A stretch of DNA of 64,000 bases, taken from positions 155,387 through 219,386 of the forward strand of contig CAYXED010000002.1 in NCBI GenBank assembly GCA_964463965.1. Direction: 5' to 3'. Made by a program: the position numbers and the translations under genes. Positions within the stretch are counted from its first letter, which is position 1, and each line of letters starts with the position of its first letter. Of the stretch, positions 4,769 to 20,961 are shown piece after piece. The notes beneath the pieces are model-generated. The model saw only the letters and a program-made list of their open reading frames with translations. It searched no databases and was not told the DNA's origin. Source of the DNA: an uncultured Nitrospiraceae bacterium. GTDB taxonomy: Bacteria; Nitrospirota; Nitrospiria; Nitrospirales; UBA2166.

Positions 4769-5476
4769 ATGAAAGATTATCGCGCATTAGTTACTGGAGG
4801 CACGCGAGGCATTGGAGAAGCTATTGCCATTGCACTTGTTGATGGTGGCTATGAAGTTTTTGTGAGCGGTATTTCGCCAAATGGACAAGGGCCTTCTGGA
4901 AGCACGTATTTGCCATGTGACTTTTCTGATCCCTCTTCGCTTTCAAGCTTTGCTGATAAGGTTAAAGCATTGGATCTTTCAGTTCTTGTTAATAATGCAG
5001 GGATTAACAAAGTGGGTCCCTTTGAAAAATATGATCCATCAGATTTTGCTCGTCTTCAGCAAGTTAATGTCACTGCACCGTTTACTTTGTGTCGAGCTGT
5101 AATTGCTGGTATGCGACGACAAAAATTTGGAAGAATTGTAAACATCACGTCAGTATTCAGTGTTGTGAGCAAGGCTGAGCGTGCTGCGTATTCAACGACA
5201 AAATTTGCGTTATTTGGAATGAGTCGAGCGCTTGCGCTTGAGGTTGCACCCGACAATGTCTTGGTTAATTGCGTAGCACCTGGATTTGTTGATACAGACC
5301 TAACTCGGCGTATTTTGGGACAGGATGGAATTGAGATGATAGTGAAAGGCGTTCCCATAGGGCGTCTTGCAGAACCCAAGGAAATTGCAAATTTTGTAAA
5401 GTTTTTAGTGAGTAAAGATAATTCATATATGACCGGACAAAATATTGTTGTTGACGGTGGTTATACTAGTGCCTAA
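4769..5476 (+). CDS. Short-chain dehydrogenase/reductase (FabG-like)
   Basis: 235 aa with TGGTRGIGEAIA, NNAG and catalytic YSTTKFA (YxxxK). Confidence 0.9.
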   Translation: MKDYRALVTGGTRGIGEAIAIALVDGGYEVFVSGISPNGQGPSGSTYLPCDFSDPSSLSSFADKVKALDLSVLVNNAGINKVGPFEKYDPSDFARLQQVNVTAPFTLCRAVIAGMRRQKFGRIVNITSVFSVVSKAERAAYSTTKFALFGMSRALALEVAPDNVLVNCVAPGFVDTDLTRRILGQDGIEMIVKGVPIGRLAEPKEIANFVKFLVSKDNSYMTGQNIVVDGGYTSA

Positions 5477-6536
5477 TTTACTAATTCAATCCCACGTTGG
5501 TTCATATCAAGTTCATTTTGGAAATTTATTTTATGGGCTTGAATCCGGATTGCACGATCATGAACACCTTATTATTGATGCGAAGGTTGCTGAGTTGTAT
5601 GCGGCGCAGCTAGCTATAGCACTTAATGCGCGATCGGTGATTCGTATTGAGGCCAATGAAAAAAATAAATCTTTAGAAATGGTTCCCAGCTATGTAACAA
5701 AGCTCTTGGAAAACGGGATTAAGCGAGACCACGTTCTGATTGCTGTGGGGGGTGGCATCATACAAGACATTACTGCATTTATTGCGGCAACGTTATTTCG
5801 AGGGATTGCGTGGAGATTTTTTCCAACAACCTTGTTAGCTCAAGCTGATAGCTGTATTGGGTCTAAATCATCAATTAATATTGGGAAATACAAAAATCAG
5901 ATAGGTACTTTTACTCCCCCTCAAGACATTTGGATATCTATTGATGTTTTGGACACATTGGATGAGAGTGATATTCGATCGGGTATTGGAGAGATGATCA
6001 AGGTTCACATTATTTCTGGATGGGATGATGCAAGATCCATTACAGCGAATTACTCTAAGCTTCTAACAGATAGGGTAACTCTTGAAAATTACATTCTCAA
6101 TTCACTCAAAATCAAACAACAAAAAATTGAGGTAGATGAATTTGATAAAGCAGAGCGCCTGATTATGAATTATGGACATAGTTTTGGACATGCTATTGAA
6201 AGTGCAACAAATTATAAAATCCCTCATGGGATTGCTGTAACTATTGGAATGGATATGGCTAATTATGTCTCGTGGAAATTTGGGCTTGCTGCGCAGTCTG
6301 TATACGAAGAATTGCATTTAGTGCTAGCAGCTAATTATAAGGGATTTGATCAAATCAAAATTCCAGAAAAACAGTTTTTTTCTGCACTAGCTAGAGATAA
6401 GAAAAACATAGGATCAGATCTTTCGTTAATTCTTTTGCATGCTCCAGGGGAAGTGTTTCGTGATAGGTATCCAAACGATGGCCAATTGCATAATATTTGT
6501 AGGGAGTTTTGGAATTTACCACGCGTCCGCACTTAA
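5445..6536 (+). CDS. 3-dehydroquinate synthase-family enzyme (AroB-like / sugar-phosphate cyclase superfamily)
   Basis: GGGIIQDITAFIAAT, ADSCIGSKSSIN, GIGEMIKV, NYGHSFGHAIE and PHGIAVTIGM match the nucleotide-binding and metal-ligand motifs of the family. ATG 5445 overlaps the upstream gene by 32 nt. GTG 5469, preceded by ggtgg, is an alternative start. Confidence 0.8.
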   Translation: MLLTVVILVPNLLIQSHVGSYQVHFGNLFYGLESGLHDHEHLIIDAKVAELYAAQLAIALNARSVIRIEANEKNKSLEMVPSYVTKLLENGIKRDHVLIAVGGGIIQDITAFIAATLFRGIAWRFFPTTLLAQADSCIGSKSSINIGKYKNQIGTFTPPQDIWISIDVLDTLDESDIRSGIGEMIKVHIISGWDDARSITANYSKLLTDRVTLENYILNSLKIKQQKIEVDEFDKAERLIMNYGHSFGHAIESATNYKIPHGIAVTIGMDMANYVSWKFGLAAQSVYEELHLVLAANYKGFDQIKIPEKQFFSALARDKKNIGSDLSLILLHAPGEVFRDRYPNDGQLHNICREFWNLPRVRT

Positions 6537-6563
6537 ATTCCTATATCAAAGGGAACCGATAGA

Positions 6564-7550
6564 GTGATTAAGGTTGGCATTATAGGTTTTGGAAAAATGG
6601 GACGTATACGTTATGACACAATTCTTGATGATAGTGAAGCAAGGGTTGTTGCTATTGCAGAGCCTAGCCAAGAAATTAAACTGCCTAGAGTTAAGTTATA
6701 TTCTGACCCTGAAGCAGTAATTCGCTCCCCAGATGTTGATGCAGTATTTATTTGCACACCAAACTATCTAAATCATTCATTAACCTTACAAGCATTAGCA
6801 GCAAATAAGCATGTGTTTTGTGAAAAGCCTCCAGCGTTTTCTTCAAAAGATGTGGAGCAGGTTATTGATGCTGAGAGGATATCCTCTGGTATTACGCTTA
6901 TGTATGGGTTTAATCATCGCCATCACGATAGTATAAAATTTGCAAAAGATTTAATTGATTCTCAATCTCATGGGCGCTTGTTATGGATGCGTGGACGCTA
7001 CGGAAAAAGTGTCGATGAAAGTTTTTATCAGAATTGGAGATCAAAAAAGGAGTTTGCTGGGGGAGGAATATTAATGGATCAGGGGATCCATATGGTAGAT
7101 CTTTTTCTCATGATGGCAGGAGACTTTCATGATGTGAATGCATATGTATCAAATGTCTATTGGAAATTAGATGTCGAAGATAATGTTTTTGCAATTCTTC
7201 GTAATGATGAAGGGGTTGTCGCTTCATTGCATTCTACCATGACACAATGGAGACATTTGTTCTCTTTAGAAATGTTTTTGGAAAAAGGATATATTGTTAT
7301 TAATGGGCTGTTGACTTCTTCTGGGACATATGGTGAAGAAGCGGTAACAATAGCAAAAAATAGAACAACCGCTCCTGCCGCTGCATGGAGTGATGAAGAA
7401 CACATACGTTTTGAGGTAAATAATTCATGGAAGTATGAAGTTCAACATTTCTTTCAATCAATTAGAGATAAGACGCCTATACAAACTGGAAATTCTCAAG
7501 ATGCACTAAAATTGATGCGTGTAATTGACAAGATTTATGCACAGGACTGA
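6564..7550 (+). CDS. Gfo/Idh/MocA-family NAD(P)-dependent oxidoreductase
   Basis: 328 aa with GIIGFGKMGR Rossmann loop, VFCEKPP, FGFNHRHH and GGGILMDQGIHMVDLF. It is a clear paralogue of 37049-38101. Confidence 0.9.
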   Translation: MIKVGIIGFGKMGRIRYDTILDDSEARVVAIAEPSQEIKLPRVKLYSDPEAVIRSPDVDAVFICTPNYLNHSLTLQALAANKHVFCEKPPAFSSKDVEQVIDAERISSGITLMYGFNHRHHDSIKFAKDLIDSQSHGRLLWMRGRYGKSVDESFYQNWRSKKEFAGGGILMDQGIHMVDLFLMMAGDFHDVNAYVSNVYWKLDVEDNVFAILRNDEGVVASLHSTMTQWRHLFSLEMFLEKGYIVINGLLTSSGTYGEEAVTIAKNRTTAPAAAWSDEEHIRFEVNNSWKYEVQHFFQSIRDKTPIQTGNSQDALKLMRVIDKIYAQD

Positions 7551-7560
7551 TAGAAGCTAA

Positions 7561-8124
7561 ATGAACGATCACAAATTTCTTCAAGATTATTTTTCTCGCT
7601 ACCGTACCGCAATTTTTGGACCTGATATTTCAGAGAATCTTATTGCATTAAGAAACCTTATGATTCAAGCACGCGAAGCAAATCATAAGACGATTATTGC
7701 TGGTAATGGTGGTAGTGCGGCAATTGCTAGTCATTGTGCTGTAGATTTTAGTAAAAATGCGAAAACTCGGTGTGTGAATTTTAATGAGCCTAGTCTTGTT
7801 ACGTGCCTTGCCAATGATTATGGATATGAGAGATGGTTAGAAAAAGCATTTGAGTTGTACTCTGATGATGGGGATGTTGCAATTTTGATTAGCTCTAGTG
7901 GGCAATCAGAAAATATGTTGCGGGCAGCTGAGTATGCACAAGTCCAAGGGTTGCCTGTTGTAACTTTCACCGGTTTTTCTCCTGACAACCCTCTTCAAAA
8001 ATACGGAACGTTAAACTTTTGGGTTGATAGTAAGGCATACAATATTGTTGAAATGACCCATCAGATTTGGCTACTAGCAGTATGTGATTTAATTATTGGC
8101 GCTGCTGAATATAGTGCATCTTGA
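7561..8124 (+). CDS. SIS-domain sugar-phosphate isomerase-like protein (GmhA/DiaA type)
   Basis: 187 aa with IIAGNGGSAAIASHCAVDF and AILISSSGQS, the patterns of the SIS fold. Confidence 0.8.
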   Translation: MNDHKFLQDYFSRYRTAIFGPDISENLIALRNLMIQAREANHKTIIAGNGGSAAIASHCAVDFSKNAKTRCVNFNEPSLVTCLANDYGYERWLEKAFELYSDDGDVAILISSSGQSENMLRAAEYAQVQGLPVVTFTGFSPDNPLQKYGTLNFWVDSKAYNIVEMTHQIWLLAVCDLIIGAAEYSAS

Positions 8125-8223
8125 TCGTTGCGATTGTGACACGTACATGGTTAAAAAAATCATTTTTGGAAGGATATGCAGTTTTGGTCTTAGTAATTTC
8201 TAGCGGTCAATGGGGGTAGTCTT

Positions 8224-8892
8224 ATGAGGACAGTAGTGGTAATTTCTCCTCATCCCGATGATGAAACGCTTGGATGTGGTGGCACAATATTGAGGCATGT
8301 TGCTGAGGGGGATTCCGTACATTGGGTTATTGTTACGTGTGTGGCTGAGGAGCTTGGATATACATCCCAGGCAATTACCGATCGTGCCGAAGAAATTCAA
8401 CGTGTTGCGGATTTCTATCGATTTTCAACAGTGACTCAGTTGGGGTTCTTGACTACAAGATTAGATGTAGTGCCGCGTGCAGATATAATTGAAAAGCTAA
8501 GTGATGTTTTTGTAGAAGTTAAGCCGGAAACTCTGTATGTGCCTTACGGAGGTGATGTTCATAGTGATCATGTTGTCGTTGCCGATGCAAGCATTGCATG
8601 CACAAAATCATTTAGGTTTTCATCAGTCAAGCAAGTCAGGGCTTATGAGGTATTATCAGAAACTGAGTTTGGAATTTCTCCCAATGTTCCAGGGTTTCGC
8701 CCAAATCTCTTTATTGATATTGGACCATACCTTGAGAAAAAAATTGAAGTGATGCATCTTTATAAGGGTGAAATGGGAGTGTTGCCATTTCCTCGCTCTG
8801 TAGAGGCTATTCGTGCGCTAGCAACAGTTCGAGGTACTACTTCGGGTTGTTCTTCTGCCGAGGCTTTTATGACTTTGAGAGAAATACTTTAA
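8224..8892 (+). CDS. PIG-L/LmbE-family N-acetylglucosaminyl deacetylase
   Basis: 222 aa with VISPHPDDETLGCGGT and HSDH zinc-ligand motifs. Confidence 0.85.
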   Translation: MRTVVVISPHPDDETLGCGGTILRHVAEGDSVHWVIVTCVAEELGYTSQAITDRAEEIQRVADFYRFSTVTQLGFLTTRLDVVPRADIIEKLSDVFVEVKPETLYVPYGGDVHSDHVVVADASIACTKSFRFSSVKQVRAYEVLSETEFGISPNVPGFRPNLFIDIGPYLEKKIEVMHLYKGEMGVLPFPRSVEAIRALATVRGTTSGCSSAEAFMTLREIL

Positions 8893-8966
8893 AGACATGT
8901 AGTTTAGTAATTCATCTTTTTTCAATTGGTATTTGATTTGCTCATATTACTTCCTACCTTTTTACC

Positions 8967-10013
8967 GTGAATATTCAAAAATCTCATGAAAGTGGATTAG
9001 TCGTTCCTCCTAATATTGCTGGAACCGTTGTGATTGTTGATGGGCTTCCTGGATGTGGAAAAACAATGTTGACGGCAATCATTGGAACGCTGGCAAGAGT
9101 CCAGTTAATGAAATTTAATTATCACTTCGAGCATGTGTGTGCCCTTCATCATCTAAATTTGATTGATGAAAACACGGCAGCTGCATTGCTTCGGATACAA
9201 ACGGATCTTGATTTGCACAACGGCATGATGGCGAGAGATACTAACTTTAGATTTTCTGATTTATCATCCGTTTGGAGTCATTCGAAGGCATTACAGTATC
9301 TTATTCGAGCCTTTGGGCCTGGTGATGCAGCGGTAATTCCTAGAATTCAACGCGAAAACCCTATTTTCCATCTTGCAACGCATGCGGCATTGGGGGTCAG
9401 TGAACCCATATTTGCGGCATTGGGAAATAGGCTTCGTATGGTTGAAGTGGTTCGGCATCCATTGTACATGCTTAAACAGTGGTGTATTTGGATGCCTCGT
9501 GCAGGTGTTGACCCAAGAATGTTTGGCCTTTGGGTTCGGTATGGAAATCATTCGGTCCCCTCTTTTGCACATGGCTGGGAAGACCTTTTTCTCAGGTCAA
9601 ACATTATGGATCGAAGTATCTACGGAATAGAAAATCGATGGAGCCTTGGAGTGAGGCGGCTTAGTCAGCTTTCCGAGGAAGACCGGAGTTTGGTTATGAT
9701 GATTCCGTTTGAGAAATTTGTTATAGATCCAAAGCCTTTTATTCAAAATCTGGAAAACTTTATTGGTACCACAACCACATCCAGTACAAAACGGACAATG
9801 AAACAGCAAAAGGTTCCTAGGACAATGTATGCCGAAGGAGTCGGTTTTAGTATCTACAAACAGTATGGTTGGGAACCGCCAGATCCAGGTGCTACTGAGC
9901 AGCAAGAATTAGATAAGAGGATGGCATTTGCAGAATCAGAAGCGAGTCCTGAGGCATTGGCGGTACTTAAAAGGTTATGTGAGCGTTATGAGGCGGAATA
10001 TCTTCCACAATGA
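8967..10013 (+). CDS. P-loop protein with sulfotransferase-like pattern (tentative)
   Basis: 348 aa. GTG start with no clear RBS. GLPGCGKT lies near the N-terminus. VVRHPL and the C-terminal IPFEKFVIDPKPFIQNLENFIG resemble sulfotransferase PAPS-binding and C-terminal patterns. A kinase is also possible. Confidence 0.4.
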   Translation: MNIQKSHESGLVVPPNIAGTVVIVDGLPGCGKTMLTAIIGTLARVQLMKFNYHFEHVCALHHLNLIDENTAAALLRIQTDLDLHNGMMARDTNFRFSDLSSVWSHSKALQYLIRAFGPGDAAVIPRIQRENPIFHLATHAALGVSEPIFAALGNRLRMVEVVRHPLYMLKQWCIWMPRAGVDPRMFGLWVRYGNHSVPSFAHGWEDLFLRSNIMDRSIYGIENRWSLGVRRLSQLSEEDRSLVMMIPFEKFVIDPKPFIQNLENFIGTTTTSSTKRTMKQQKVPRTMYAEGVGFSIYKQYGWEPPDPGATEQQELDKRMAFAESEASPEALAVLKRLCERYEAEYLPQ

Positions 10014-10112
10014 TTGTGATAGAGCTCAGTTTTGGTCGTGAGACGGTGTAATGTCTTTACTATATTGTCATATGGCTAGCAGTTGGACTAGTATTACTGG
10101 TATGGGTGTGGA

Positions 10113-12284
10113 GTGGGTGACAATGTTGTTATGAGTGCGCTCAATATACTAAAGGATGTTCCGCTAAAGGTGTATATCTGCGACCTTACTCATGATACCG
10201 TTGTTTTAGTGTCCGATACTATCCCTATCAATGTTGGGTTTATCGGTGCATATGCGAAGAAAACTCACGGTGATGCCATTGATACGGCTCTGTTTAAATA
10301 CCCTCAAGCAGTTATTGAGGCAATTAAGGCCAATCCTCCAGATGTAATTGCTCTGAGTAATTACTCGTGGAATAGCAGGCTTTCAGAACGTATTGCACGA
10401 TTCGCAAAGGAATGCAACCCTAAAGTGGTTACGGTGCAAGGTGGAACAAACTTTCCTCACACCGAACAGCAGCAGCTTGAATTTTTACGCTCGCGTCCTT
10501 CGACAGATGTGTATGTAGAATTGGAAAGTGAAATGGCGTTTGCAGGGTTGATTTCTAAAATATTAGCTTGTAAGGATTCGAGGGAAACGATTTTTGAGAG
10601 TTTGATCCCCGGATGTGTATTCATCGAGCCTTCGACACGCCATAAGAGTAGCCCAGTTCTTCGCCGAGGGGAGTTGCTTCCACGTTTTGATAATCTCGAT
10701 GATATTCCATCACCTTATCTTACTGGAACACTAGACCATTTTTTTGATGGTCGATTGACACCCTTTATTGAGACTAATCGAGGTTGTCCATTTTTATGTA
10801 CTTTCTGTCACACTGGGGCGGAATATTTTAACAAAACGAAAATGTTTTCTTTTGAACGTGTTGCAGAAGAGATTAACTATATTGCCCCTCGTGTTGCGGA
10901 TCTTGGTATTGTCAATCTTCATCTTGCTGATACAAACTTTGGAATGTATCAACGTGACCGAGAGATTTGTGAGGCATTGCTGAGGAGTCAGGAAACATTT
11001 GGTTGGCCACGACAGATCATGGCTACCACTGGGAAAAATAACAAGGCACGAGTGATAGATATTACGAAAATTATGGGAACAGTGTTTTCGGTTAATATGT
11101 CTGTTCAGTCAATGGATCAAAAGGTATTGTCGAATATTAAACGAGATAATATTCGAATTGAGGATTATACCAAGGTCACTCAACATTTAAATGAAGTTGG
11201 CCGTGCTACAAAAGCAGAACTTATTTCTGGTCTTCCTGGGGAAACCCGTGAATCGTATGTTCGAGGTGTGAAGCAGGTAATGGAGTCAGGAGCGAGTAAT
11301 ATAGGCTCTTATACTTTGATGCTTCTTCATGGGACAGAATTTAAGGAGCCTGAGTATCGTACTAAGTTTGCGATAGAGGGAAAGTATAGGATTGTTCCTC
11401 TCGATTTTGGGGAATATGAAGGTGAGAAGGTTTTTGATACCGAAGAAGTATGTATTGCAACAAATACAATGACATTTGATGATTATGTTTGGATTCGAGG
11501 GTTATGTTTATTTGTTGAGGTTATGCACAATAATAGACCATTTGATGAGTTGATACGATATGGCATTGGTTGTGGGCTTACAAGGTTTGAGATTATTACT
11601 CGCGCGTATGATGAAATTAAAAATTCTCCGGCTCAAGTGCGTGAGATTGTTGATGCGTTTATGGATGAGACTCGTCGAGAATTATGGGATTCTGATGAGG
11701 AATTAATGGCATGGTTTGAGCGTGATGAAAACTATGCGAGGCTTGTTCGAGGCGAAGTTGGTGGGAATCTAATTTATAAATATAAGGCGATGAGTTTAGC
11801 ATTTCATAGTGATGAGTGGGTTGAGTTTCTTAGCTCCATCATCAGGCAACTTGTTCAAGAAATTAGACCTCAACTTGATGCGACGAAGCAATTGGAGCGA
11901 GAACTTGGATTGCTTGTGACATATGTCAAAAATAAACTAGCTGGAATTTTAAATTGTGAGGGGGATGAAGAGCCTCGTTCTATGGAGTCAGGCTTTGATA
12001 TAAAGAAGTGGGTTAAAAGTCCAGAAGGAAGTTCCTTGGAAAGCTTTGCTTTGACGAACTCTCTTACTTATACTTTTGAATATTCTCCAGATCAGTTTGT
12101 GGCCAGGCGAGATTATTTTAAGCGATATGGTACTGATGTTAATGCGTTAAGTAAAATTGTAACTCGCGTCAGTAATGTGGAAAGTCTATTCCGGACGATT
12201 CATGTAAAAAGCTCTGAGGGTACTGCATTAGTTACAGATTACGAACAAAAAGACGAGTTTACTCGGTATACCCTTTTTAACTGA
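10113..12284 (+). CDS. B12-binding-domain radical SAM enzyme (class B)
   Basis: 723 aa. The N-terminal segment is B12-binding-like (DVIALSNYSWN ... VVTVQGG). The 4Fe-4S motif is CPFLCTFC (CxxxCxxC). A C-terminal extension of about 250 aa has no motif I recognise. The start is GTG 10113 or ATG 10131. Confidence 0.85.
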   Translation: MGDNVVMSALNILKDVPLKVYICDLTHDTVVLVSDTIPINVGFIGAYAKKTHGDAIDTALFKYPQAVIEAIKANPPDVIALSNYSWNSRLSERIARFAKECNPKVVTVQGGTNFPHTEQQQLEFLRSRPSTDVYVELESEMAFAGLISKILACKDSRETIFESLIPGCVFIEPSTRHKSSPVLRRGELLPRFDNLDDIPSPYLTGTLDHFFDGRLTPFIETNRGCPFLCTFCHTGAEYFNKTKMFSFERVAEEINYIAPRVADLGIVNLHLADTNFGMYQRDREICEALLRSQETFGWPRQIMATTGKNNKARVIDITKIMGTVFSVNMSVQSMDQKVLSNIKRDNIRIEDYTKVTQHLNEVGRATKAELISGLPGETRESYVRGVKQVMESGASNIGSYTLMLLHGTEFKEPEYRTKFAIEGKYRIVPLDFGEYEGEKVFDTEEVCIATNTMTFDDYVWIRGLCLFVEVMHNNRPFDELIRYGIGCGLTRFEIITRAYDEIKNSPAQVREIVDAFMDETRRELWDSDEELMAWFERDENYARLVRGEVGGNLIYKYKAMSLAFHSDEWVEFLSSIIRQLVQEIRPQLDATKQLERELGLLVTYVKNKLAGILNCEGDEEPRSMESGFDIKKWVKSPEGSSLESFALTNSLTYTFEYSPDQFVARRDYFKRYGTDVNALSKIVTRVSNVESLFRTIHVKSSEGTALVTDYEQKDEFTRYTLFN

Positions 12285-12446: not shown

Positions 12447-13565
12447 GTGGTTGCTTGCTACGAGAAACCTCTCTGCAGTCTGATGTTGAAAATGGATGAA
12501 AATTACCTTAAGGAAGTTAACTCTATTCAATTTTCCGGACGTGCTGTCGGTTCAGGTTTTCCATGTTTTATTATTGCTGAAGCGGGCGTAAATCATAATG
12601 GTAGTCTTGATATGGCAAGACAGCTAATTGATGCAGCGGCAGAAGCCGGTGCAGATGCAGTGAAGTTCCAGACCTTTAATGCGGAGAAACTTGTTGGTTC
12701 TGGAGTATCAAAAGCAGAATATCAATTGAAAACAACAGACCCAGATGAGTCACAGTTGACAATGTTGCGTCGCCTTGAATTTTCAATGGATTCGCACCGT
12801 GTTTTGCGTGACTATAGTGATGAAAAAGGCATTCTTTTCTTGTCAACGCCATTTGACCAAGAGTCTGTGGATCTTCTTGATCAGTTGGGTATACCTGTTT
12901 TCAAGATCAGCTCTGGGGATATTACTAATTGGCCTCTCTTAAAATATATTGCTAAGAAGGGGAAGCCTATTATTCTCTCTACTGGAATGTCTTATCTTGA
13001 AGAGGTCAGTGAAGCTATACGTTTAATTTTTGAAACAGGTAATGATCAAGTAAGTGTGTTGCACTGTGTTTCGAATTACCCTGCGAATCCTGAGGATATA
13101 AACTTACAAGCAATGGCAACGATGGCAAAGTCCTTTCGTCTTCCCGTGGGTTATTCAGACCATACTTTAGGCATTGAAATTTCGTTTGCTGCGGTAGCAT
13201 GTGGAGCGTGTATTATTGAAAAGCACTTCACGTTAGATAGGGCGCTGCCAGGGCCGGACCATGCTATCTCCATATTACCTCAGGAGCTTGCAGCGTTAAC
13301 CCGTGGGGTGAGGTTGATTTCAGGCGCATTAGGCAATGGCGAAAAAATTCCAGCAAAAAGCGAAAAAAAATCTCGTGAGGTTGCTAGAAGAAGCTTGGTG
13401 GCCTCTTGTGATATTGCACCTGGCACTGTCATTGAAGAGCCGATGATTCTGTGCATGCGACCTGGTACTGGGCTATCTCCAATATATTGTGATTGGGTTA
13501 TTGGGCGGAGAGCTAAGGTCAAGATTATGGCTAATCAGTTGATAGCAAGAGAAATGTTCGAATGA
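12447..13565 (+). CDS. neuB: N-acetylneuraminate/legionaminate synthase family (NeuB/LegI-like), canonical paralogue
   Basis: FIIAEAGVNHNGSLDMA, KFQTF, GYSDHTLG and EKHFTLDR are present, with a C-terminal SAF-like domain. The maximal ORF starts at GTG 12447. ATG 12483 or 12492 is the more likely true start. Confidence 0.9.
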   Translation: MVACYEKPLCSLMLKMDENYLKEVNSIQFSGRAVGSGFPCFIIAEAGVNHNGSLDMARQLIDAAAEAGADAVKFQTFNAEKLVGSGVSKAEYQLKTTDPDESQLTMLRRLEFSMDSHRVLRDYSDEKGILFLSTPFDQESVDLLDQLGIPVFKISSGDITNWPLLKYIAKKGKPIILSTGMSYLEEVSEAIRLIFETGNDQVSVLHCVSNYPANPEDINLQAMATMAKSFRLPVGYSDHTLGIEISFAAVACGACIIEKHFTLDRALPGPDHAISILPQELAALTRGVRLISGALGNGEKIPAKSEKKSREVARRSLVASCDIAPGTVIEEPMILCMRPGTGLSPIYCDWVIGRRAKVKIMANQLIAREMFE

Positions 13566-14473
13566 ATATTCTAATAGAGGCCGCAGGGAGTAAGGTTTGG
13601 GGAACTCTTTTGCCTTACTTGAGAACCGTTTCAAGTAAAATTGTTGGATTAGATATTGATGCGTTTTCGTGTGGACTCTATATGGTCAATCAAGGATATG
13701 TGGTTCCACGATATGATGAGGTGGGATGTTTCGAAAAAATACTTAAAATTTGCAGAAATGAAAAGATTGAATTGGTTCTTCCCTCAATTAATGAAGGGTT
13801 GCTGGAGTGGGCAAAGCAGCGCGTTTCTCTCCAAAGGGAGGGAATTAAGGTCTTAATATCTCCACCTGAATCTATTGCAATATGTCAGGATAAGTGGGAG
13901 ACGTATCAATTTTTTTCTGACAATAAAATTCCAACCCCGCCTACCTCGCTTAGGCATGAATATGATCTTGTGAAGCCTCGAATAGGGCGAGGGGGAACTG
14001 GGATTGAACGTATTAGCCCCACCAAAAAAATTAATATGGAAGGATATATCTCGCAGCAATTTATCAATGGTGAAGAGTTTTCGGTTGATGCCTTGTGCGA
14101 TTTTGATGGAAATGTTGTTTATGTTGTGCCACGAAAGCGACTTGCTGTTGAATCTGGGCTTTCTGTGAAAGGTCAAGTCGTAAATGATTCAGAGATTGAA
14201 ATGTATGTTCGGAAAATTTTAAGCTTAACCCCTTTTATTGGTCCCATTGATATTCAATGTTTTAAAGTTGACTCTGATATATTTTTTACTGAGATAAACC
14301 CTCGTATTGCAGGTGGATTGTCTCTTTCAATGGCCGCAACTGAAAACTGGTTTGAGGCAGTTGTGGAGATGGGGAAGGGAGTTTCTATTAATCCTGTTAA
14401 GGTCAATTATGGTTTACTCACAATGAGATACCTATCTGACTGCATAATCCATGAACGCGATTTACTTTTATGA
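13562..14473 (+). CDS. ATP-grasp family ligase
   Basis: 303 aa with KPRIGRGGTGI, EFSVDAL and TEINPRIAGG. The start makes an ATGA overlap with the upstream stop. Confidence 0.8.
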   Translation: MNILIEAAGSKVWGTLLPYLRTVSSKIVGLDIDAFSCGLYMVNQGYVVPRYDEVGCFEKILKICRNEKIELVLPSINEGLLEWAKQRVSLQREGIKVLISPPESIAICQDKWETYQFFSDNKIPTPPTSLRHEYDLVKPRIGRGGTGIERISPTKKINMEGYISQQFINGEEFSVDALCDFDGNVVYVVPRKRLAVESGLSVKGQVVNDSEIEMYVRKILSLTPFIGPIDIQCFKVDSDIFFTEINPRIAGGLSLSMAATENWFEAVVEMGKGVSINPVKVNYGLLTMRYLSDCIIHERDLLL

Positions 14474-15159
14474 TTCTTGCTGCAGGTTTTGACCTAGATG
14501 ATACGTTATATGAGCACCAGCAGTATATTGAAGGTGCCTATTGGGACATTGCTTTGGAAGTTGAGAGGAGAAAGGGTATTTCAGGTAAGAAGTTTTTTAA
14601 GCGTATTTTGTCTGATTGGACAAAGCTTACTAGTCAATCTAATACTATTTTTTCGAAAGCCTTGTCAGATTATAATATTTATTCTTTGGAACTTGAATCC
14701 GACTTACTGAATGTTTATCGTGCACATGAGCCGACACTGACACCTTACCCCGGCGTTGTTCAGGGGTTGCAAGAGTTAAAAAATAAAGGGGTTCGTCTTG
14801 GTTTACTTACGGATGGACAGCTTCAAGTCCAGCAACGTAAGCTGAATGTTTTAGGTTTGGAACAATTTTTTGATGTAAAAGTGTATACCGGAAGTTTCGG
14901 GGTTGATTTTTATAAACCCCATCCTCGGGGGTTTCAAAGTCTTGTAGCTGGCCTTAAAGTGCCTTTTGGAAAAATTGCGTATTTAGGAGACAATCCGTCA
15001 ACGGATTTCCAAGTGCCTAAGGAAATTGGTATGCAAACAATACGTTTACAGACGGGGCAGTATAAAAATCTTAAGTTGAACGCGCATTCTGTTGATCAAG
15101 TATTCTCGAGTATCTCTCAAGCAATCCATTGGTTGATTGAAAATAAAGGAACAGCTTGA
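14470..15159 (+). CDS. HAD-superfamily hydrolase/phosphatase
   Basis: 229 aa with FDLDDTLY (DxDxT), LLTDG and GDNPSTD. Confidence 0.85.
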   Translation: MILAAGFDLDDTLYEHQQYIEGAYWDIALEVERRKGISGKKFFKRILSDWTKLTSQSNTIFSKALSDYNIYSLELESDLLNVYRAHEPTLTPYPGVVQGLQELKNKGVRLGLLTDGQLQVQQRKLNVLGLEQFFDVKVYTGSFGVDFYKPHPRGFQSLVAGLKVPFGKIAYLGDNPSTDFQVPKEIGMQTIRLQTGQYKNLKLNAHSVDQVFSSISQAIHWLIENKGTA

Positions 15160-15160
15160 T

Positions 15161-16330
15161 ATGAGGAAGCGTAAGTTAGTTGTTGCTTTGACGGGTATTC
15201 GCTCAGAGTATGATATTTTTTTCTCGCCTTTAAAAGCCATTCATGAGCATCCTGATTTGGAGCTTCGCCTTATAGTTGCAGGCGCACACTTGGCTTCACG
15301 TTATGGAATGACGGTAAGGCAAATTGAAGAAGATGGGTTTTCTATTGCAGAGCGAATTGAAAGTTTGCTTGATTCTGATACTTCAAGTGGACGAATAAAA
15401 TCTGCAACTGTTGAATTAATGGGTGTAGTCAGTGCACTAGACCGGTTAAATCCTGATTATCTTTTAGTATGTGGTGACAGAGAAGAAGCAATAGTAGGCG
15501 CTTTGGCAGGAGCATACATGAATATTGCTGTTGCACACATTGGTGGTGGGGATGTGGTAGTTGGAAATGTAGATGATTCTGTTCGTCATGCTGTTACGAA
15601 GCTATCGCACTTGCACTTTGCATTCAGCAAAAACAGTGCGGACAGAATTTGCTCTATGGGAGAAGAATCTTGGCGTGTGCATCTTGTGGGTAATCCTGCT
15701 TTAGACCGCTTTGGTGTACTCCCTAAGTTGTCGCGAAAAGAGTTGAGTGATCGCTTGCATTTTGATGTTACAAAGGCTCCGGTTTTATTGGTTATACAGC
15801 ATAATATTAGCAGTGAAATTGAGAGTTCTGGCGTTCAAATGCAAACTACGATAGAAGCTATTAAAGAACTAGGGTATCCGACCTTGCTAAGCTATCCAAA
15901 TTCTGATGCTGGAAGTCGTGATATTATTAAGGTTATTGATGAACGTGCAAGGCATTTGCCTAATGTCAAGGTCTACCAAAGTCTTCCAAGGCTTGAGTTT
16001 GTTAATCTTTTACAAATAGCAGATGTATTGATAGGGAATTCAAGTTTGGGGCTTCTTGAAGCGCCATTTTTAAAGCTTCCCGCAGTGAACGTAGGCAATA
16101 GGCAGAAAAAGCGGGAACATGCCGATAATGTTTTATTTGTCTCTCACGATAAAGAAGCCATAAAAGAGTCTGTCAATATGGCATTGCATGATTCAAAGTT
16201 TCTTCAGCGGCTTAATGCGTGCTCGTGTCCATTTGGTGATGGGAAGGCTGGTCAGAAGATTGCAAGCGTGCTTGCAAAAACTGAGCTTGCTCCCGTACTC
16301 GTGAATAAAGATTGGGCATTTAAAGTATAA
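15161..16330 (+). CDS. neuC: UDP/GDP-N-acetylglucosamine-type 2-epimerase (hydrolysing), NeuC/LegG-like
   Basis: TGIRSEYDI, CGDREE, HIGGGD and IGNSS give the family pattern. ATG 15161 is preceded by aaagga. The track ORF starts at TTG 15137, inside the upstream gene. Confidence 0.85.
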   Translation: MRKRKLVVALTGIRSEYDIFFSPLKAIHEHPDLELRLIVAGAHLASRYGMTVRQIEEDGFSIAERIESLLDSDTSSGRIKSATVELMGVVSALDRLNPDYLLVCGDREEAIVGALAGAYMNIAVAHIGGGDVVVGNVDDSVRHAVTKLSHLHFAFSKNSADRICSMGEESWRVHLVGNPALDRFGVLPKLSRKELSDRLHFDVTKAPVLLVIQHNISSEIESSGVQMQTTIEAIKELGYPTLLSYPNSDAGSRDIIKVIDERARHLPNVKVYQSLPRLEFVNLLQIADVLIGNSSLGLLEAPFLKLPAVNVGNRQKKREHADNVLFVSHDKEAIKESVNMALHDSKFLQRLNACSCPFGDGKAGQKIASVLAKTELAPVLVNKDWAFKV

Positions 16331-16458
16331 TTTTTCACTGATTTAACCTTATAACCTCAACCATGTACTGTCTTTATGATATGAGTGGGAAAAGTCAATT
16401 TCCCCTTGTAATATTGAATACGACTTCAGTGCATTTGATTGACTAGTAAGGGTTTAAG

Positions 16459-17484
16459 ATGCGACAAAAAAAGAACTCATTATTGACATCAAGCTCTGTA
16501 TATATTATCGCAGAAATGGCTTGTTCCCACGAAGGCGATGTTGTTTTAGGCCAATCAATAATTGATGCCGCCGGGTCTGCTGAGGCGAATGCAATTCAAT
16601 TTCAGGTTTGGTCTCTTTCGGATATGGTCGTTCCTCATCATCCAGCGTATGAAATGCTTTCAAGTATTGAGTTGTCTCGTGATTCTTGGACTAACCTTTT
16701 TCACTATGCCAGAAAAAAATTTCCTGAGATGGAAATTATCGCATGCGTTTATGAGCGTGGGAGTGTTGATTTCTGTGAGTCTCTTGGGATTGATGCATAT
16801 AAAATTCACTCTGCTGATCTTTCAAACCCTTACCTTATAAAACATATTGCACGTACAGGTAAGCCTATTGATCTAAGTGTTGGGGCGTCGACTCTTAATG
16901 AAATTCAGACTGCAGTTGAATGGATTGGCAGCAGCTCTGAATCACCAATTTGGCTTATGTATGGATATCAAGATTTCCCTACGAAAACCGATGATGTCCA
17001 TTTGAGATATATGATGAATCTCAAGCGGCTTTTTGGATTGCCTGTTGGCTATCAGGATCATAGTGATGCCGAGACTGAGGCTTCATTTTGGCTTCCAGCT
17101 GTCGCGGTGGGTATGGGTATTGATGTCCTAGAAAAACACATTACACATGATAGATCATTGAAGGGAGTAGATCATGAGGCAGCCCTAAACCCTCAAGAAT
17201 TTTCCAGTTTTGTAGGTATGGTGCGTGAAATTGAATGTGCGCTTGGAGTCTCAACTCCGAAGGAATTTTCTAAAAATGAGATTGAATATCGTCGATCATC
17301 AAAGAAGAGCCTCGTCGCAGCTCGGGCATTAGATACGGGCACGATACTCACCGAGAAAGATTTTATTTTTATGAGGGCTGAGACTTTAGGGGTTCCTCCT
17401 GATAAAGCTCATTGGTTGATTGGGAAAAAGTTAAAAAATCCAATTGCTGCATTTCATCTCATTCTTTATGAAGATCTTGAATGA
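16459..17484 (+). CDS. NeuB-family ulosonic acid synthase, divergent second paralogue
   Basis: 341 aa. GYQDHS, LEKHITHDR and a C-terminal SAF-like domain are conserved. The N-terminal active-site strand reads IIAEMACSHEGD where the canonical paralogue has IIAEAGVNHNG. Confidence 0.8.
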   Translation: MRQKKNSLLTSSSVYIIAEMACSHEGDVVLGQSIIDAAGSAEANAIQFQVWSLSDMVVPHHPAYEMLSSIELSRDSWTNLFHYARKKFPEMEIIACVYERGSVDFCESLGIDAYKIHSADLSNPYLIKHIARTGKPIDLSVGASTLNEIQTAVEWIGSSSESPIWLMYGYQDFPTKTDDVHLRYMMNLKRLFGLPVGYQDHSDAETEASFWLPAVAVGMGIDVLEKHITHDRSLKGVDHEAALNPQEFSSFVGMVREIECALGVSTPKEFSKNEIEYRRSSKKSLVAARALDTGTILTEKDFIFMRAETLGVPPDKAHWLIGKKLKNPIAAFHLILYEDLE

Positions 17485-19247
17485 AAACCTGTTTCCTTAT
17501 TACTGCACGACTGAAATCAACTCGCCTACCAAAGAAGTTGTTGCTAGAAGTTTGTGGAAAACCATTGCTTGCCCATATGATAGACAGAATTAAAGAAGCA
17601 AGGCTTATTGACGAAATTGTTGTTTGCACTTCGACCAACAGCGAAGACGATCCCTTATGTGATTTAGCCTCTGTAGAAAATGTGTCTTATTTTAGGGGAG
17701 ATGAAGAAGATGTAGTTAAAAGACTATATGATGCTTCTTTAAAGTTTGAGGCAGATTATATTTTAAATATTACAGGCGATTGTCCTTTTGTTGATCCTGT
17801 TTATATTGATCGCATTGTAGAAGTTAATCAAACGATCAAGGCAGACTTAGTTCGTGCGTTGGAATTGCCTCATGGAGCGTATGCCTATGGTGTCTACCCA
17901 TCAGCTATAAAGACAATCCTTGATATTAAAAGTTCAAAAGACTCTGAAGTGTGGACCCCATATTTTACAGATACTAACTTATTTTCTGTCTATGATCTTC
18001 CAATTGATAATCCCCATCACCGTAGATCTCATCTTCGCATGACATTAGACTACCCTGAAGATTTGAAGTTTTTTGAGGCCGTATTTTCTCACTTATACAA
18101 TGTTGAGAGAGTTTTTAGTTTGGATGAAATTTTAGAACTTTTGAAAAATAATCCAGAGATAGTTGCTCTTAATGACCACTGTTCATTGCCATATAAAAAA
18201 CGATGGACTAGGCAATCTGTAATTGGTTTGAAGCCTAGGTGTGAAGTGAATTCTGCAGTCATTGTTGGGTGTGGTTCGATAGGAAAGAGGCATATCAAAA
18301 ATTTGTCTTCGCTGGGCATTACTGAAATTACAGCATTGAGAACTTTTCATGGTTATACCAAGGCACTCCCAGAAGAATATAATGTGATCGAAGTAGGAGA
18401 TATTGACTCTCTCAAAAAGGTATCTCCTGATATAGCCATTATTAGTAATCCAACAAGTCTCCACATTGAAACTGCAAGAACATTGCTTCAATATGTTAAG
18501 GGAGTGTTTATTGAAAAGCCTTTAGCCGCATCACTCGATGGAGTATCTGAATTTATTGATGAGGTTTATGATAGAGGCATTGTATCGTTTGTAGGATATA
18601 ACCTTGAATTTCACCCTGCAATATGCACGATTCGTGACTTGATTACATCCGGAAGTTTTGGAACTCCCATGATATTTCAATGTCAGGTCGGACAATGGTT
18701 ACCTGATTGGCATCCATACGAAGAGTATAAAGATGCGTACTATGCCCGTAAATCATTGGGTGGTGGTGCAATGTTGACTCTCAATCATGAACTTCATTTA
18801 GCAGAGTCACTTATTGGACCTTCTCAGTCTGTTGGATGCTTTCTTCCCCACACAGATCTTTTGGAAGTCGATGTTGAAACTGTTGCTGATTTGATGATCA
18901 AGCATGTTTCAGGCGCAGTTAGCCAGGTTCATTTGGATTTTATCCAGAAGCCATCTCATCGAGTTGGCGTGCTTTCATGTGAGCGTGGACGGGTGAACTA
19001 TGATTTAAGCGCAAATCAGGTGTTTGCAAGCTCTGGAGACTCTAAAGCTCCCAGGTTGGTTTGGGAAGATCCTTTGTACGATATTAATGATTCATATGTT
19101 GGAGAGATGAAAAAGTTTTTAGAGTATGTGAGAGAAGGAAGAATGCGTCATGAGTTTGATGTATGTAGGGCAAAACGTGATATGGAAGTTGTCGAAGCCG
19201 CTTTTGAATCTCACAAGTTAGGACGCTTTGTTCAATTGACTAGTTGA
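17481..19247 (+). CDS. Fusion protein: SpsF/NeuA-family cytidylyltransferase (N-terminal) plus Gfo/Idh/MocA oxidoreductase (C-terminal)
   Basis: 588 aa. Residues 1-245 carry ITARLKSTRLPKKLL and GDCPFVD. Residues 255-588 carry VIVGCGSIGKRH and FIEKPL. The start makes an ATGA overlap with the upstream gene. Confidence 0.8.
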   Translation: MKTCFLITARLKSTRLPKKLLLEVCGKPLLAHMIDRIKEARLIDEIVVCTSTNSEDDPLCDLASVENVSYFRGDEEDVVKRLYDASLKFEADYILNITGDCPFVDPVYIDRIVEVNQTIKADLVRALELPHGAYAYGVYPSAIKTILDIKSSKDSEVWTPYFTDTNLFSVYDLPIDNPHHRRSHLRMTLDYPEDLKFFEAVFSHLYNVERVFSLDEILELLKNNPEIVALNDHCSLPYKKRWTRQSVIGLKPRCEVNSAVIVGCGSIGKRHIKNLSSLGITEITALRTFHGYTKALPEEYNVIEVGDIDSLKKVSPDIAIISNPTSLHIETARTLLQYVKGVFIEKPLAASLDGVSEFIDEVYDRGIVSFVGYNLEFHPAICTIRDLITSGSFGTPMIFQCQVGQWLPDWHPYEEYKDAYYARKSLGGGAMLTLNHELHLAESLIGPSQSVGCFLPHTDLLEVDVETVADLMIKHVSGAVSQVHLDFIQKPSHRVGVLSCERGRVNYDLSANQVFASSGDSKAPRLVWEDPLYDINDSYVGEMKKFLEYVREGRMRHEFDVCRAKRDMEVVEAAFESHKLGRFVQLTS

Positions 19248-19277
19248 GTTGATAATCTGAATTAAAATGTGAAGAGT

Positions 19278-20111
19278 ATGAGTAAAACTGCATTTGATCT
19301 TACAGAAAAAACTGCTTTGGTAGTCGGGGGTAATGGGTTTCTCGGATGTCGTTTGTGTAACGAATTAATTCAGCACGGTGCCACAGTATATGCGGCAGAT
19401 TTGCGCGAATCATCTTTGGCGGCTTCTCGAGATGACTCCCTTGTCCTTGAAAAGAAGGTTTTGCAACGCACAGTTGATGTTGCTGATTCGACGTCGGTGG
19501 TCAATCTTGTTGATGGGATTATCGAAGAGGCAAAGAAGATTGATATTCTTGTTTACAGTGTTACCGCAAAGCCGCACGATTTTTATAAACCGTTTACAGA
19601 GTGTTCACTTGAAGGTTGGCAATCTCTTATGCGTATGGAGTTGGATGGGCTTTTTCTCATTTCAAAGCATGTCGGGAAGTATATGGAGGCTGCAGGTGAA
19701 GGTAGTATGGTTTTTCTTTCCTCCATCTATGGGATAGTTGGTAATGATCAGAGAATATATGAAGAGGCAAATCTTGCAACATTGTATGCTGGTATAGATA
19801 AGGATGAGGCAAAAAAAATCTACTCGCATGCGGGATATGCCGTTGCCAAAGGAGGAGTTATCGCTCTAACGCGCTTTCTTGCAGCGTACTGGGGAAAGGC
19901 TGGAATTAGAGTGAACTGTGTTTCTCCAGGAGGCATTTCGCATCCAGGGGAAGATGATGGCTTTGTTCAGCGTTATTCGTTTCGAGTGCCGATGGGCCGT
20001 AAGGGGTTGCCTTCAGAGGTTGGAGGTGCAGTTGTGTACTTATCATCGAATGCCGCTAGTTACGTGACAGGTCACAACCTTGTAGTAGATGGTGGGTGGA
20101 CATCCTGGTAA
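19278..20111 (+). CDS. Short-chain dehydrogenase/reductase
   Basis: VVGGNGFLGCRL and catalytic YAVAKGG. GTG 19269 is a possible alternative start. Confidence 0.85.
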   Translation: MSKTAFDLTEKTALVVGGNGFLGCRLCNELIQHGATVYAADLRESSLAASRDDSLVLEKKVLQRTVDVADSTSVVNLVDGIIEEAKKIDILVYSVTAKPHDFYKPFTECSLEGWQSLMRMELDGLFLISKHVGKYMEAAGEGSMVFLSSIYGIVGNDQRIYEEANLATLYAGIDKDEAKKIYSHAGYAVAKGGVIALTRFLAAYWGKAGIRVNCVSPGGISHPGEDDGFVQRYSFRVPMGRKGLPSEVGGAVVYLSSNAASYVTGHNLVVDGGWTSW

Positions 20112-20174
20112 TTATTATTGTTGGTTTTTGAATTTGTGGTTGCTAGGTACTTTTTTCTCTAGCACGTTGTTTTC

Positions 20175-20846: not shown

Positions 20847-20961
20847 TAAGGTATTATGAGGAAATATTATTATGGTAAGGCGTTATATTTATGCTTCCTT
20901 TCAGGGTGTTATGTAGGATATATGTTGCAGGATCAGTCTATTCCCAACAGAGGAGGCTCTA

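Follow-up and report, generated by a model that had tools for sequence, protein, structure and literature searches.

Organization of the locus

The stretch of DNA analysed here, referred to as the window, comprises 64,000 nucleotides from an uncultured Nitrospiraceae bacterium (assembly GCA_964463965.1, contig CAYXED010000002.1, positions 155,387 to 219,386 of the forward strand). Near its beginning lies the gene of a 3-dehydroquinate synthase (DHQS)-like enzyme of the TIGR04425 family, which is the subject of this study. The gene is embedded in about 60 kb of genes with a GC content of about 0.41, almost all of which are on the + strand, and the locus forms a large island of surface-polysaccharide or glycan genes that comprises several branches for CMP- and NDP-sugars. 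The DHQS-like gene and its immediate neighbours are the following.

4769..5476, + strand: classical short-chain dehydrogenase/reductase (SDR), a ketoreductase (Pfam adh_short_C2, 177 bits)
5469..6536, + strand: DHQS-like enzyme, TIGR04425 family (the list of open reading frames, ORFs, begins this gene at TTG 5445)
6564..7550, + strand: Gfo/Idh/MocA NAD(P) sugar oxidoreductase (Pfam), a recurrent module member
7561..8124, + strand: GmhA-like SIS phosphosugar isomerase (SIS_2, 48.5 bits), a recurrent module member

The initial annotation of this DNA had grouped six families into an aminocyclitol-like set, namely a DHQS-like cyclase, a Gfo/Idh/MocA oxidoreductase, a SIS isomerase, a PIG-L deacetylase, a P-loop protein and a B12-radical SAM enzyme. 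Pfam confirms these families at the positions proposed for them, with the exception of the P-loop protein (8967-10013), which has no Pfam match and is recognised by its GLPGCGKT motif only. The SDR gene directly upstream, which turns out to be the most constant partner of the cyclase-like gene, was missing from that set.

Identity of the DHQS-like protein

The ORF at 5445-6536 exhibits both DHQS domains in Pfam (DHQ_synthase N-terminal domain, 117 bits; DHQS_C, 102 bits). Its start most likely has to be moved from TTG 5445, as first annotated, to GTG 5469. With this start, the product has 355 aa and matches the public gene call P0001 exactly, and the gene shares 8 nt with the end of the upstream SDR gene, stop codon included. 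Numbered from GTG 5469, the metal ligands E175, H237 and H253 and the nucleotide motif GGGIIQD are intact, as had been proposed.

The protein matches TIGR04425 with 460.3 bits (cutoff 400) over model positions 1-345 of 348, and scores 260.2 bits with the aroB equivalog model TIGR01357, under the cutoff of 305. As TIGR04425, described as [quoted passage not shown], is a model of the hypothetical-equivalog type, the family has a catalogue entry and no assigned function. The best 120 database matches share 59-100% identity with the window protein, and many database entries label the family as 3-dehydroquinate synthase. Its identity with DHQS itself is 28-31%. [quoted passage not shown] The position of the gene far from any shikimate gene, already noted in the initial annotation, holds for the whole window: among all its large ORFs, Pfam detects neither a shikimate-pathway gene nor a second DHQS in 64 kb.

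Phylogeny and active site

A neighbour-joining tree with 100 bootstraps was built from 39 family members, 24 reference cyclases and a glycerol dehydrogenase outgroup, the reference cyclase sequences being those of the eLife 2015 source data (PMC4426668). The TIGR04425 family is monophyletic in 100/100 replicates and lies outside DHQS (8 bacterial, archaeal and fungal references), aminoDHQ synthase (aminoDHQS), DOIS, EEVS, DDGS and 2-epi-valiolone synthase (EVS; 3 references). DHQS is its sister group in 40/100 replicates. Together with the scores on the two models, this separate clade supports the proposal that the protein is not the AroB of the shikimate pathway.

For the active site, we compared 13 positions (A. 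nidulans numbering) which we take to be those of the DHQS active site; this list differs from the published list of 14 sites. Kean et al. in 2014 reportedly defined 14 fingerprint residues. All 13 positions are invariant in the 8 DHQS references. In the window protein, R130, D146, K152, N162, E194, K197 and K250 correspond to R111, D127, K133, N143, E175, K178 and K216, and R264, N268, H271, H275, H287 and K356 correspond to R230, N234, H237, H241, H253 and K311. The full DHQS pattern is found in 39/39 genomic members and in 69/69 members from IMG/VR contigs, the sole variation being K197H in some of them.

None of the departures from this pattern that mark the other cyclases is present in the family. 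DOIS exhibits R264G, N268E and K356N, EEVS exhibits K250M, R264E/A, N268D and H275M/P, and DDGS exhibits K250M, R264D, N268A and H275P. EVS departs from DHQS only by K356R, and K356 is kept by all 39 genomic and all 69 IMG/VR members. The phylogeny and the inspection of the active-site residues, which the initial annotation had suggested as a check, thus place the family outside DHQS, DOIS, EEVS, EVS and DDGS, with the residue pattern of DHQS. The analogy with DOIS- or EEVS-type aminocyclitol enzymes does not hold, as their marker residues are absent and the family stands outside their clades. The active-site residues would favour a substrate resembling 3-deoxy-D-arabino-heptulosonate 7-phosphate (DAHP), short of proof.

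The variable position, K197 (K178 in the window protein), is a histidine in 8/21 type A genomic members (type A is defined below) and in 21/69 IMG/VR members. On the IMG/VR contigs, this histidine tracks a class III aminotransferase (15/15) and a cupin-fused CMP-transferase (18/18). The aminoDHQ synthase RifG exhibits an arginine at the same position.

Conserved neighbourhood of the DHQS-like gene

Scanning one genome per GTDB species yielded at least 80 loci from more than 25 named lineages. Carriers include Nitrospiraceae, SAR11, SAR86, SAR116, Verrucomicrobiota, Planctomycetota, Bacteroidota, Chloroflexota and Patescibacteria, and archaea such as Thaumarchaeota, Halobacteriales and Methanomassiliicoccales. 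Among them is a cultured strain, Joostella sp. CR20 (L042). Neighbours were counted with our own ORF calls, with HMMs built for this analysis and by de novo clustering of the neighbouring proteins. In 75/82 loci from many phyla, the gene immediately upstream of that for the DHQS-like enzyme encodes an SDR (offset -213 to +4 nt), which greatly exceeds what chance would produce. No other partner of the DHQS-like family is as constant as the SDR. No shikimate genes are found among the recurrent neighbours of the DHQS-like gene.

Neighbour clustering separates two contexts, type A, to which the window belongs, and type B, with 42 and 14 loci, respectively, that have at least four genes on each side. 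Type A loci usually exhibit Gfo (37 of 42), SDR (37), a PGDH-like 2-hydroxyacid dehydrogenase (31), CTP_transf_3 (29) and a GmhA-like SIS (27), and less often an HpcH aldolase (14), a Maf-type transferase (13) or NeuB (5). The two enzymes that directly follow the cyclase-like gene in the window, Gfo/Idh/MocA and SIS, had been assigned to it in the initial annotation, and their frequencies in type A loci support this assignment. Type B loci exhibit an AHAS-like thiamine diphosphate (TPP) enzyme (14 of 14), SDR (13), a 4,6-dehydratase/epimerase (12), DegT (8), HpcH-like (6) and NeuB-like (6) enzymes and an FGGY kinase (3), and CTP_transf_3 in none. The SDR/DHQS-like pair is accompanied there by an NDP-4-amino-4,6-dideoxyhexose route (NTP-transferase, 4,6-dehydratase and DegT) and a family 2 glycosyltransferase (GT2). 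With loci numbered L001 onwards, type B comprises L037, L046, L050, L055, L058-L063, L067, L069, L070 and L076-L081 and, on IMG/VR contigs, L096, L097, L110 and L116-L156, and in this set an FGGY kinase is frequent around the SDR/DHQS-like pair. One of them (L078, on the Gammaproteobacteria MAG chromosome OZ257143.1) carries two genes of the DHQS-like family, four genes apart and on opposite strands.

The closest relatives of the window locus (L001/L003, L083 and L084) are found in a Nitrospiraceae metagenome-assembled genome (MAG; 74% identity) and on two metagenome contigs. All of them show the order SDR, DHQS-like and Gfo, followed by SIS in L001/L003 and L084, and then by a sulfotransferase-fold or DUF386 gene, a cupin-fused CTP_transf_3 and legionaminic-type genes. 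In Bacteroidota, genes of the YhcH/DUF386 family (the sialate anomerase family) and Maf-type transferases adjoin the module.

Family members are also carried by 69 contigs of IMG/VR (filed as viral; L088-L156), of which 8 are giant-virus MAG bins. An SDR is present in 63 of these 69 loci and a SIS in 25. Their type A version is a compact set comprising the cupin-fused CTP_transf_3, SDR, the DHQS-like enzyme, a class III aminotransferase and SIS, and has no NeuB or HpcH enzyme. Compact loci include L090 and L091. In five IMG/VR loci, a DegT aminotransferase takes the place of the SDR directly upstream of the DHQS-like gene. Genomes of cultured phages gave only matches of about 30-36% identity, several of them annotated as aroB or lying on bacterial records, and these look like host-type aroB genes, not family members.

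Other module members in the window

In the window, the module is split into three groups of genes (4769-8124, 21802-24213 and 36273-41521). The first and third of these are contiguous in other genomes, for example in L012, L014 and L028. The members of the second and third groups are the following.

21802..22950, + strand: fusion of CTP_transf_3 (CMP-ulosonate synthetase family; Pfam PF02348, 84.8 bits) and Cupin_2
22984..24213, + strand: class III aminotransferase, lysine-6-transaminase-like (Aminotran_3, 182 bits), an optional module member
36273..41521, + strand: second half of the extended type A set (Pfam, NCBIfam), comprising the six genes below
36273-37052, + strand: CTP_transf_3
37049-38101, + strand: Gfo/Idh/MocA paralogue
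38098-39123, + strand: 341-aa protein with a weak methyltransferase-like signal only (PF13489, 20.8 bits)
39128-39937, + strand: HpcH/HpaI pyruvate aldolase
39934-40593, + strand: HAD phosphatase
40586-41521, + strand: PGDH-like 2-hydroxyacid dehydrogenase, nearest to D-3-phosphoglycerate dehydrogenases (1e-49)

Among the solved structures, the nearest relatives of the Gfo protein at 6564-7550 are levoglucosan dehydrogenase, glucose-fructose oxidoreductase and anhydrofructose reductase. Those of the SIS protein at 7561-8124 are all phosphoheptose isomerases (best 1.5e-16); it keeps the GNGGSA and SSSGxS motifs and reaches 69 bits on the gmhA model TIGR00441, under the cutoff of 209. The GmhA-like SIS and the PGDH-like dehydrogenase both resemble enzymes acting on phosphosugars or phospho-acids.

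The cupin-fused CTP_transf_3 scores under the equivalog cutoffs of the PseF and KdsB models (PseF, 104 bits vs 206), and a search with its cupin domain gave generic metal-cupin matches only. Its homologues on IMG/VR contigs (44-46% identity) adjoin the SDR and DHQS-like genes, and in the closest relatives of the window locus it stands 1-2 genes after SIS. From this placement, it is probably the activating enzyme of the module. The aminotransferase reaches 259 bits on the lysine-6-transaminase (LAT) family model, under the cutoff of 521, and homologues of it (39-48% identity) are direct neighbours of the DHQS-like gene; at least 12 IMG/VR loci, L013 and L048 show this arrangement. In 13/42 type A loci, a counterpart of the 341-aa protein at 38098-39123 is encoded between CTP_transf_3 and Gfo.

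Tailoring genes outside the core module

The three genes that follow the SIS gene in the window had been counted as part of the aminocyclitol-like set.

8224..8892, + strand: PIG-L/LmbE-type de-N-acetylase (Pfam PIG-L, 79.7 bits)
8967..10013, + strand: sulfotransferase-fold protein, the "P-loop protein" of the initial annotation, carrying GLPGCGKT
10113..12284, + strand: class B radical SAM enzyme of a family of about 710 aa (B12-binding PF02310, 41.7 bits; Radical_SAM PF04055, 53.1 bits)

Neither PIG-L nor the B12-radical SAM enzyme is a partner of the cyclase-like gene: they are present in 1 and 2 of the 82 cyclase loci, respectively, and recur together in its absence. The radical SAM protein has more than 2000 homologues and scores 211 bits on the KedN5-family model, under the cutoff of 700. 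On three unrelated contigs (L085, L086 and L087), its gene stands amid genes for NeuB, a NeuC-type epimerase, a PglD-like protein and a CBS-NTP-transferase, in clusters that also hold DegT, CTP_transf_3, Gfo and SDR genes. No DHQS-like gene lies within 8 kb of the radical SAM gene on these three contigs, and a deacetylase gene adjoins it in L085 (CE4) and in L087 (PIG-L). As the radical SAM enzyme and a deacetylase recur in legionaminic-type clusters that have no DHQS-like gene, the two are best read as a nonulosonic-acid tailoring pair, not as cyclitol enzymes, and PIG-L probably acts on the nonulosonic acid as a tailoring enzyme. For Magnetospirillum gryphiswaldense, CMP-ulosonic acids that are C-methylated or have an extended chain (C10) have been reported, with no pathway assigned to them (bioRxiv 10.64898/2026.04.20.719630). 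The B12-radical SAM family of about 710 aa could account for acids of that kind.

The P-loop protein is probably not a member of an aminocyclitol set either, as its predicted fold matches that of sulfotransferases. It has no Pfam or NCBIfam match above threshold (PF13469, 13 bits vs a cutoff of 27). The best 50 PDB matches obtained by Foldseek with its AlphaFold2 model (pLDDT 87.9) are all 3'-phosphoadenosine 5'-phosphosulfate (PAPS) sulfotransferases, with E values down to 2.5e-7 and modest TM scores of 0.3-0.55. The protein belongs to an unnamed family with 599 homologues, in which the P-loop GLPGCGKT is invariant. We also considered a phosphate-supplying kinase, and rejected it, since the sequence search of the PDB was empty and the fold search returned only sulfotransferases. 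Relatives of this protein are encoded within the module in L084 and near it in L083, and the sulfotransferase-fold protein thus accompanies the cyclase module in a sub-lineage. As a second, canonical sulfotransferase is encoded at 54084-54971, the glycan may be sulfated. PIG-L and the B12-radical SAM enzyme, and in a looser sense also the sulfotransferase-fold protein, count as tailoring functions outside the core module.

The surrounding glycan island

The remaining features of the island are the following.

12447..27539, + strand: legionaminic-acid-type nonulosonic acid pathway, interleaved with the cyclase module (Pfam, NCBIfam)
44364-47539: CDP-glucose-derived deoxyhexose route (glucose-1-phosphate cytidylyltransferase TIGR02623, 347 bits vs a cutoff of 300)
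50982-52943: asparagine-synthase-type amidotransferase
54084-54971: second, canonical sulfotransferase

The legionaminic-type region holds two NeuB, an ATP-grasp protein, a HAD protein, NeuC, a fusion of CTP_transf_3 and Gfo, an SDR, a PglD-like protein, a methyltransferase, a CBS-NTP-transferase, a LegB-like protein and LegC. Scores against cutoffs are 447/400 bits for NeuB (TIGR03569), 385/236 for NeuC_NnaA, 487/420 for LegC and 443/475 for the LegB-like protein, which is just under. The fusion of CTP_transf_3 and Gfo/Idh/MocA (588 aa, window 17481-19247), followed by the SDR at 19269-20111, belongs to the legionaminic-type branch, and its counterparts in L083-L087 are separate adjacent genes.

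The second SIS gene (43147-43743, weak, 30.7 bits) and the TAL/FSA gene (43760-44443) reported in the initial annotation are both present. They had been proposed to feed sedoheptulose 7-phosphate to the cyclase. Such a role is not borne out by the comparison, as these genes occur in 3 and 0 of the 82 cyclase loci, respectively, and adjoin the CDP-glucose pathway. In the window (43147-48624), the distal SIS and the FSA/TalC-like gene are followed by the cytidylyltransferase, a 4,6-dehydratase, RmlC-like and RmlD-like genes and a GT2 gene, and this region represents a branch for CDP-deoxyhexose and does not feed the cyclase.

Past the CDP route lie genes for glycosyltransferases, the canonical sulfotransferase, an initiating sugar transferase and Polysacc_synt_2, and then UvrA on the other strand. 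About 55 consecutive genes share one strand over window positions 1-60223, with a steadily positive GC skew; at 60 kb, the position of the oppositely oriented genes for UvrA and a peptidase M16, it is down to about zero. Four large ORFs have no Pfam match (2804-4756, 650 aa; 27565-29652, 695 aa; 41518-43137, 539 aa; 49681-50949, 422 aa), and the first three have no NCBIfam match either. The 695-aa ORF reappears near the module in L013 and L060. These four ORFs may be novel glycosyltransferases or polymerases.

Proposed function of the SDR-coupled TIGR04425 enzyme

We propose that the TIGR04425 enzyme, working jointly with the SDR to which it is translationally coupled, leads, through a ketone that serves as a branch point, to a CMP-activated acid for a surface glycan, and we consider the chances of this proposal to be even. 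The substrate, the product and the order of the steps are what the proposal supplies. Like DHQS, the DHQS-like enzyme would use bound NAD+ and a metal. It would oxidise a hydroxyl of a DAHP-like substrate, that is, of a 2-keto-acid sugar 7-phosphate, and beta-elimination of the phosphate would leave a keto intermediate. This ketone would then be reduced by the SDR or, in some relatives, aminated by a DegT or class III aminotransferase. The strongest hint of a ketone branch point as the product comes from loci in which an aminotransferase stands where the SDR usually does.

The substrate might come from primary metabolism or from enzymes encoded in the cluster, which in type B loci could be the NeuB-like or HpcH-like enzymes, the FGGY kinase and the TPP enzyme. 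In type A loci, the GmhA-like isomerase, the Gfo/Idh/MocA oxidoreductase and the PGDH-like dehydrogenase would prepare or re-tailor the sugar phosphate, and the cupin-fused CTP_transf_3 would turn the acid product into a CMP derivative for the surface glycan. Another route that we considered starts from sedoheptulose 7-phosphate, whose C1 would be oxidised, giving a 2-keto acid, by SIS, Gfo and the PGDH-like dehydrogenase. Bacterial type A loci are compatible with it; Gfo and the dehydrogenase are missing from the compact IMG/VR sets, and we kept this route only as a possible feeder. The HpcH aldolase was rejected as an obligatory step, as it is found in only 14/42 type A loci. In the literature on bradyrhizose, caryose and carbasugars, we found no biosynthetic lead.

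With regard to the end product, a carbocyclic acid of the dehydroquinate/quinate type and a pyranose 7-deoxy-keto-heptulosonic acid appear about equally probable. To our knowledge, every characterised member of the superfamily cyclises. In DHQS chemistry, the enol-pyranose intermediate closes spontaneously. A 7-deoxy-keto-heptulosonic acid that retains the ring oxygen would better fit the CMP activation, the anomerase-like gene of the YhcH family and the Maf-type transferases.

Several observations weigh against the proposed pathway. We know of no precedent in the superfamily for a non-cyclising outcome, and a CMP-activated carbocycle is, on chemical grounds, a poor glycosyl donor. Of the type A loci, 13/42 lack CTP_transf_3, as do all the type B loci, so CMP activation is not universal, and the type B loci, which have no CMP-transferase, are unaccounted for. 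The GmhA-like SIS is without an explained role if DAHP itself is the substrate. The active-site residues leave the substrate unfixed, as EVS takes sedoheptulose 7-phosphate with a near-DHQS pattern. In the window, the CMP-transferase and the aminotransferase lie 14 kb away from the cyclase-like gene. Finally, we found no published function in the searchable literature for the TIGR04425 family or for the conserved module.

Alternative explanations

The type B loci could be explained if the SDR and the DHQS-like enzyme made a stable, quinate-like carbocyclic acid that is no glycosyl donor but an acyl or ether substituent of, for example, an amino sugar or a nonulosonic acid, with the CMP-transferases serving other sugars of the locus. 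In these loci, the pair is combined with an NDP-4-amino-4,6-dideoxyhexose route and GT2 in the absence of CTP_transf_3, and the window itself contains three CTP_transf_3 genes, two NeuB and an ATP-grasp ligase. The cyclising outcome would also agree with all the characterised superfamily members that we know of. Nevertheless, the compact IMG/VR type A sets carry the cupin-fused CTP_transf_3, with no NeuB or HpcH enzyme that could provide another ulosonic acid for it. Moreover, CTP_transf_3 is single in 21 of the 29 type A loci that bear it, NeuB is near in 5/42, and the 40 largest neighbour clusters include no conserved ligase or acyltransferase. We therefore consider such a substituent unlikely.

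The aminocyclitol hypothesis of the initial annotation can be stated in more general terms as a DOIS- or EEVS/EVS-type cyclase that converts glucose 6-phosphate or sedoheptulose 7-phosphate into a neutral (amino)cyclitol, which would be tailored by Gfo, SIS, PIG-L, the P-loop protein and the B12-radical SAM enzyme and attached to the glycan. The part of it that stands is a non-shikimate enzyme of the cyclase family within a glycan locus, whereas the analogy with aminocyclitol gene sets is lost. The protein does belong to the cyclase superfamily, and EVS shows that a near-DHQS residue set is able to use sedoheptulose 7-phosphate. A GmhA-like isomerase is a recurrent partner, the best NCBIfam match of the Gfo protein is inositol 2-dehydrogenase (108 bits, well under the cutoff), and aminotransferases adjoin the enzyme in some loci, as in the pairing of DOIS with DegT. 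However, the marker residues of DOIS and of EEVS/DDGS are absent, the family lies outside those clades, and similarity declines from DHQS to DOIS, EEVS and DDGS. PIG-L, the radical SAM enzyme and the distal SIS/TAL pair do not accompany the cyclase in a conserved manner, the fold predicted for the P-loop protein is that of a sulfotransferase, and the frequent CMP-ulosonate-type transferase points to a carboxylated substrate. A neutral cyclitol is thus an improbable product.

A divergent or spare 3-dehydroquinate synthase for aromatic amino acids, located in the glycan locus by chance, would agree with the full set of DHQS catalytic residues, with DHQS as the nearest structures and with the label in many database entries, but it is extremely improbable given the scores under the aroB cutoff and above that of TIGR04425, the separate clade (100/100), the 28-31% identity, and an SDR and sugar-gene context that is kept across phyla with no shikimate gene among the recurrent neighbours.

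Significance

TIGR04425 was already catalogued; what is new here is an uncharacterised clade of sugar-phosphate cyclases that appears to have been recruited to CMP-sugar and surface-glycan synthesis. A more far-reaching claim, which we make tentatively and regard as possible but somewhat doubtful, is that the family is a sixth functional clade of sugar-phosphate cyclases. It would make an undescribed C7 acidic surface sugar, either a carba-ulosonic acid of the (amino)quinate type or a 7-deoxy-(amino)heptulosonic acid resembling a shortened sialic acid, by means of a coupled reductase or aminotransferase and a dedicated CMP-transferase, and this sugar would be common on bacteria of the sea and the soil, on some archaea and possibly on giant viruses.

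Phage attachment, grazing and immune recognition depend on microbial surface glycans, and the glycan chemistry of uncultured lineages is largely undescribed. If the proposed pathway is correct, a DHQS-fold enzyme in a CMP-sugar pathway would represent a new route to a surface sugar via phosphate elimination, a step for which the known pathways rely on either a phosphatase or an NDP-sugar dehydratase. One biochemical characterisation would re-annotate thousands of genes labelled as 3-dehydroquinate synthase, and in metabolic reconstructions that take a TIGR04425 gene for aroB, the shikimate pathway would be called too often. On IMG/VR contigs, the compact versions of four or five genes offer a minimal pathway that is directly testable.

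Comparison with known systems

The closest likeness is to AroB/DHQS (EC 4.2.3.4) and to the RifG-type aminoDHQ synthase, with which the TIGR04425 enzyme shares the fold, the domains, the nearest structures and the 13 DHQS residues. As these active-site residues are identical, the chemistry is expected to start in the same way, with an NAD+-dependent oxidation followed by elimination of phosphate. The family differs from AroB in its model score, its clade, its identity of 28-31% and its context of SDR, sugar-tailoring and CMP-activating genes.

With EVS, EEVS (ValA) and DDGS, the family has in common the superfamily, a non-shikimate role, residues close to those of EVS and a partner isomerase of the heptose-phosphate type. 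In contrast to these enzymes, it exhibits none of their residue switches, lies outside their clades and is found in surface-glycan loci instead of secondary-metabolite clusters. C7-cyclitol pathways rely on kinases and NDP-transferases, whereas the TIGR04425 family is accompanied by CMP-transferases. The pairing of DOIS with DegT in 2-deoxystreptamine biosynthesis (BtrC/BtrS) also resembles the module, in that an enzyme of the cyclase fold would deliver a ketone and an aminotransferase stands beside it in five IMG/VR loci. The family nevertheless lacks G264, E268 and N356, its usual partner is a reductase, and there is no aminoglycoside glycosyltransferase set.

The pathways to CMP-Kdo (KdsD-KdsA-KdsC-KdsB) and to the CMP-nonulosonic acids (NeuC-NeuB-NeuA; Leg, Pse) are similar with respect to SIS, CTP_transf_3 and, in some loci, an aldolase or synthase. 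Further likenesses are the Maf-type transferases, the YhcH-family protein and the legionaminic-type pathway in the same locus. The module differs from them in having the DHQS-like enzyme and the SDR where those pathways use a phosphatase, in the low frequency of NeuB (5/42) and in its divergent CMP-transferase.

The logic proposed for the module is also that of the NDP-hexose 4,6-dehydratase branch (RmlB, then RmlC/RmlD or DegT): bound NAD+ would oxidise the substrate, a leaving group would be eliminated, and the resulting ketone would go to an SDR for reduction or be aminated. The module pathway also includes a cupin domain. This likeness is an analogy only, as the enzyme has the DHQS fold and not that of an SDR, the leaving group would be phosphate and not water, and the substrate would not be nucleotide-linked.

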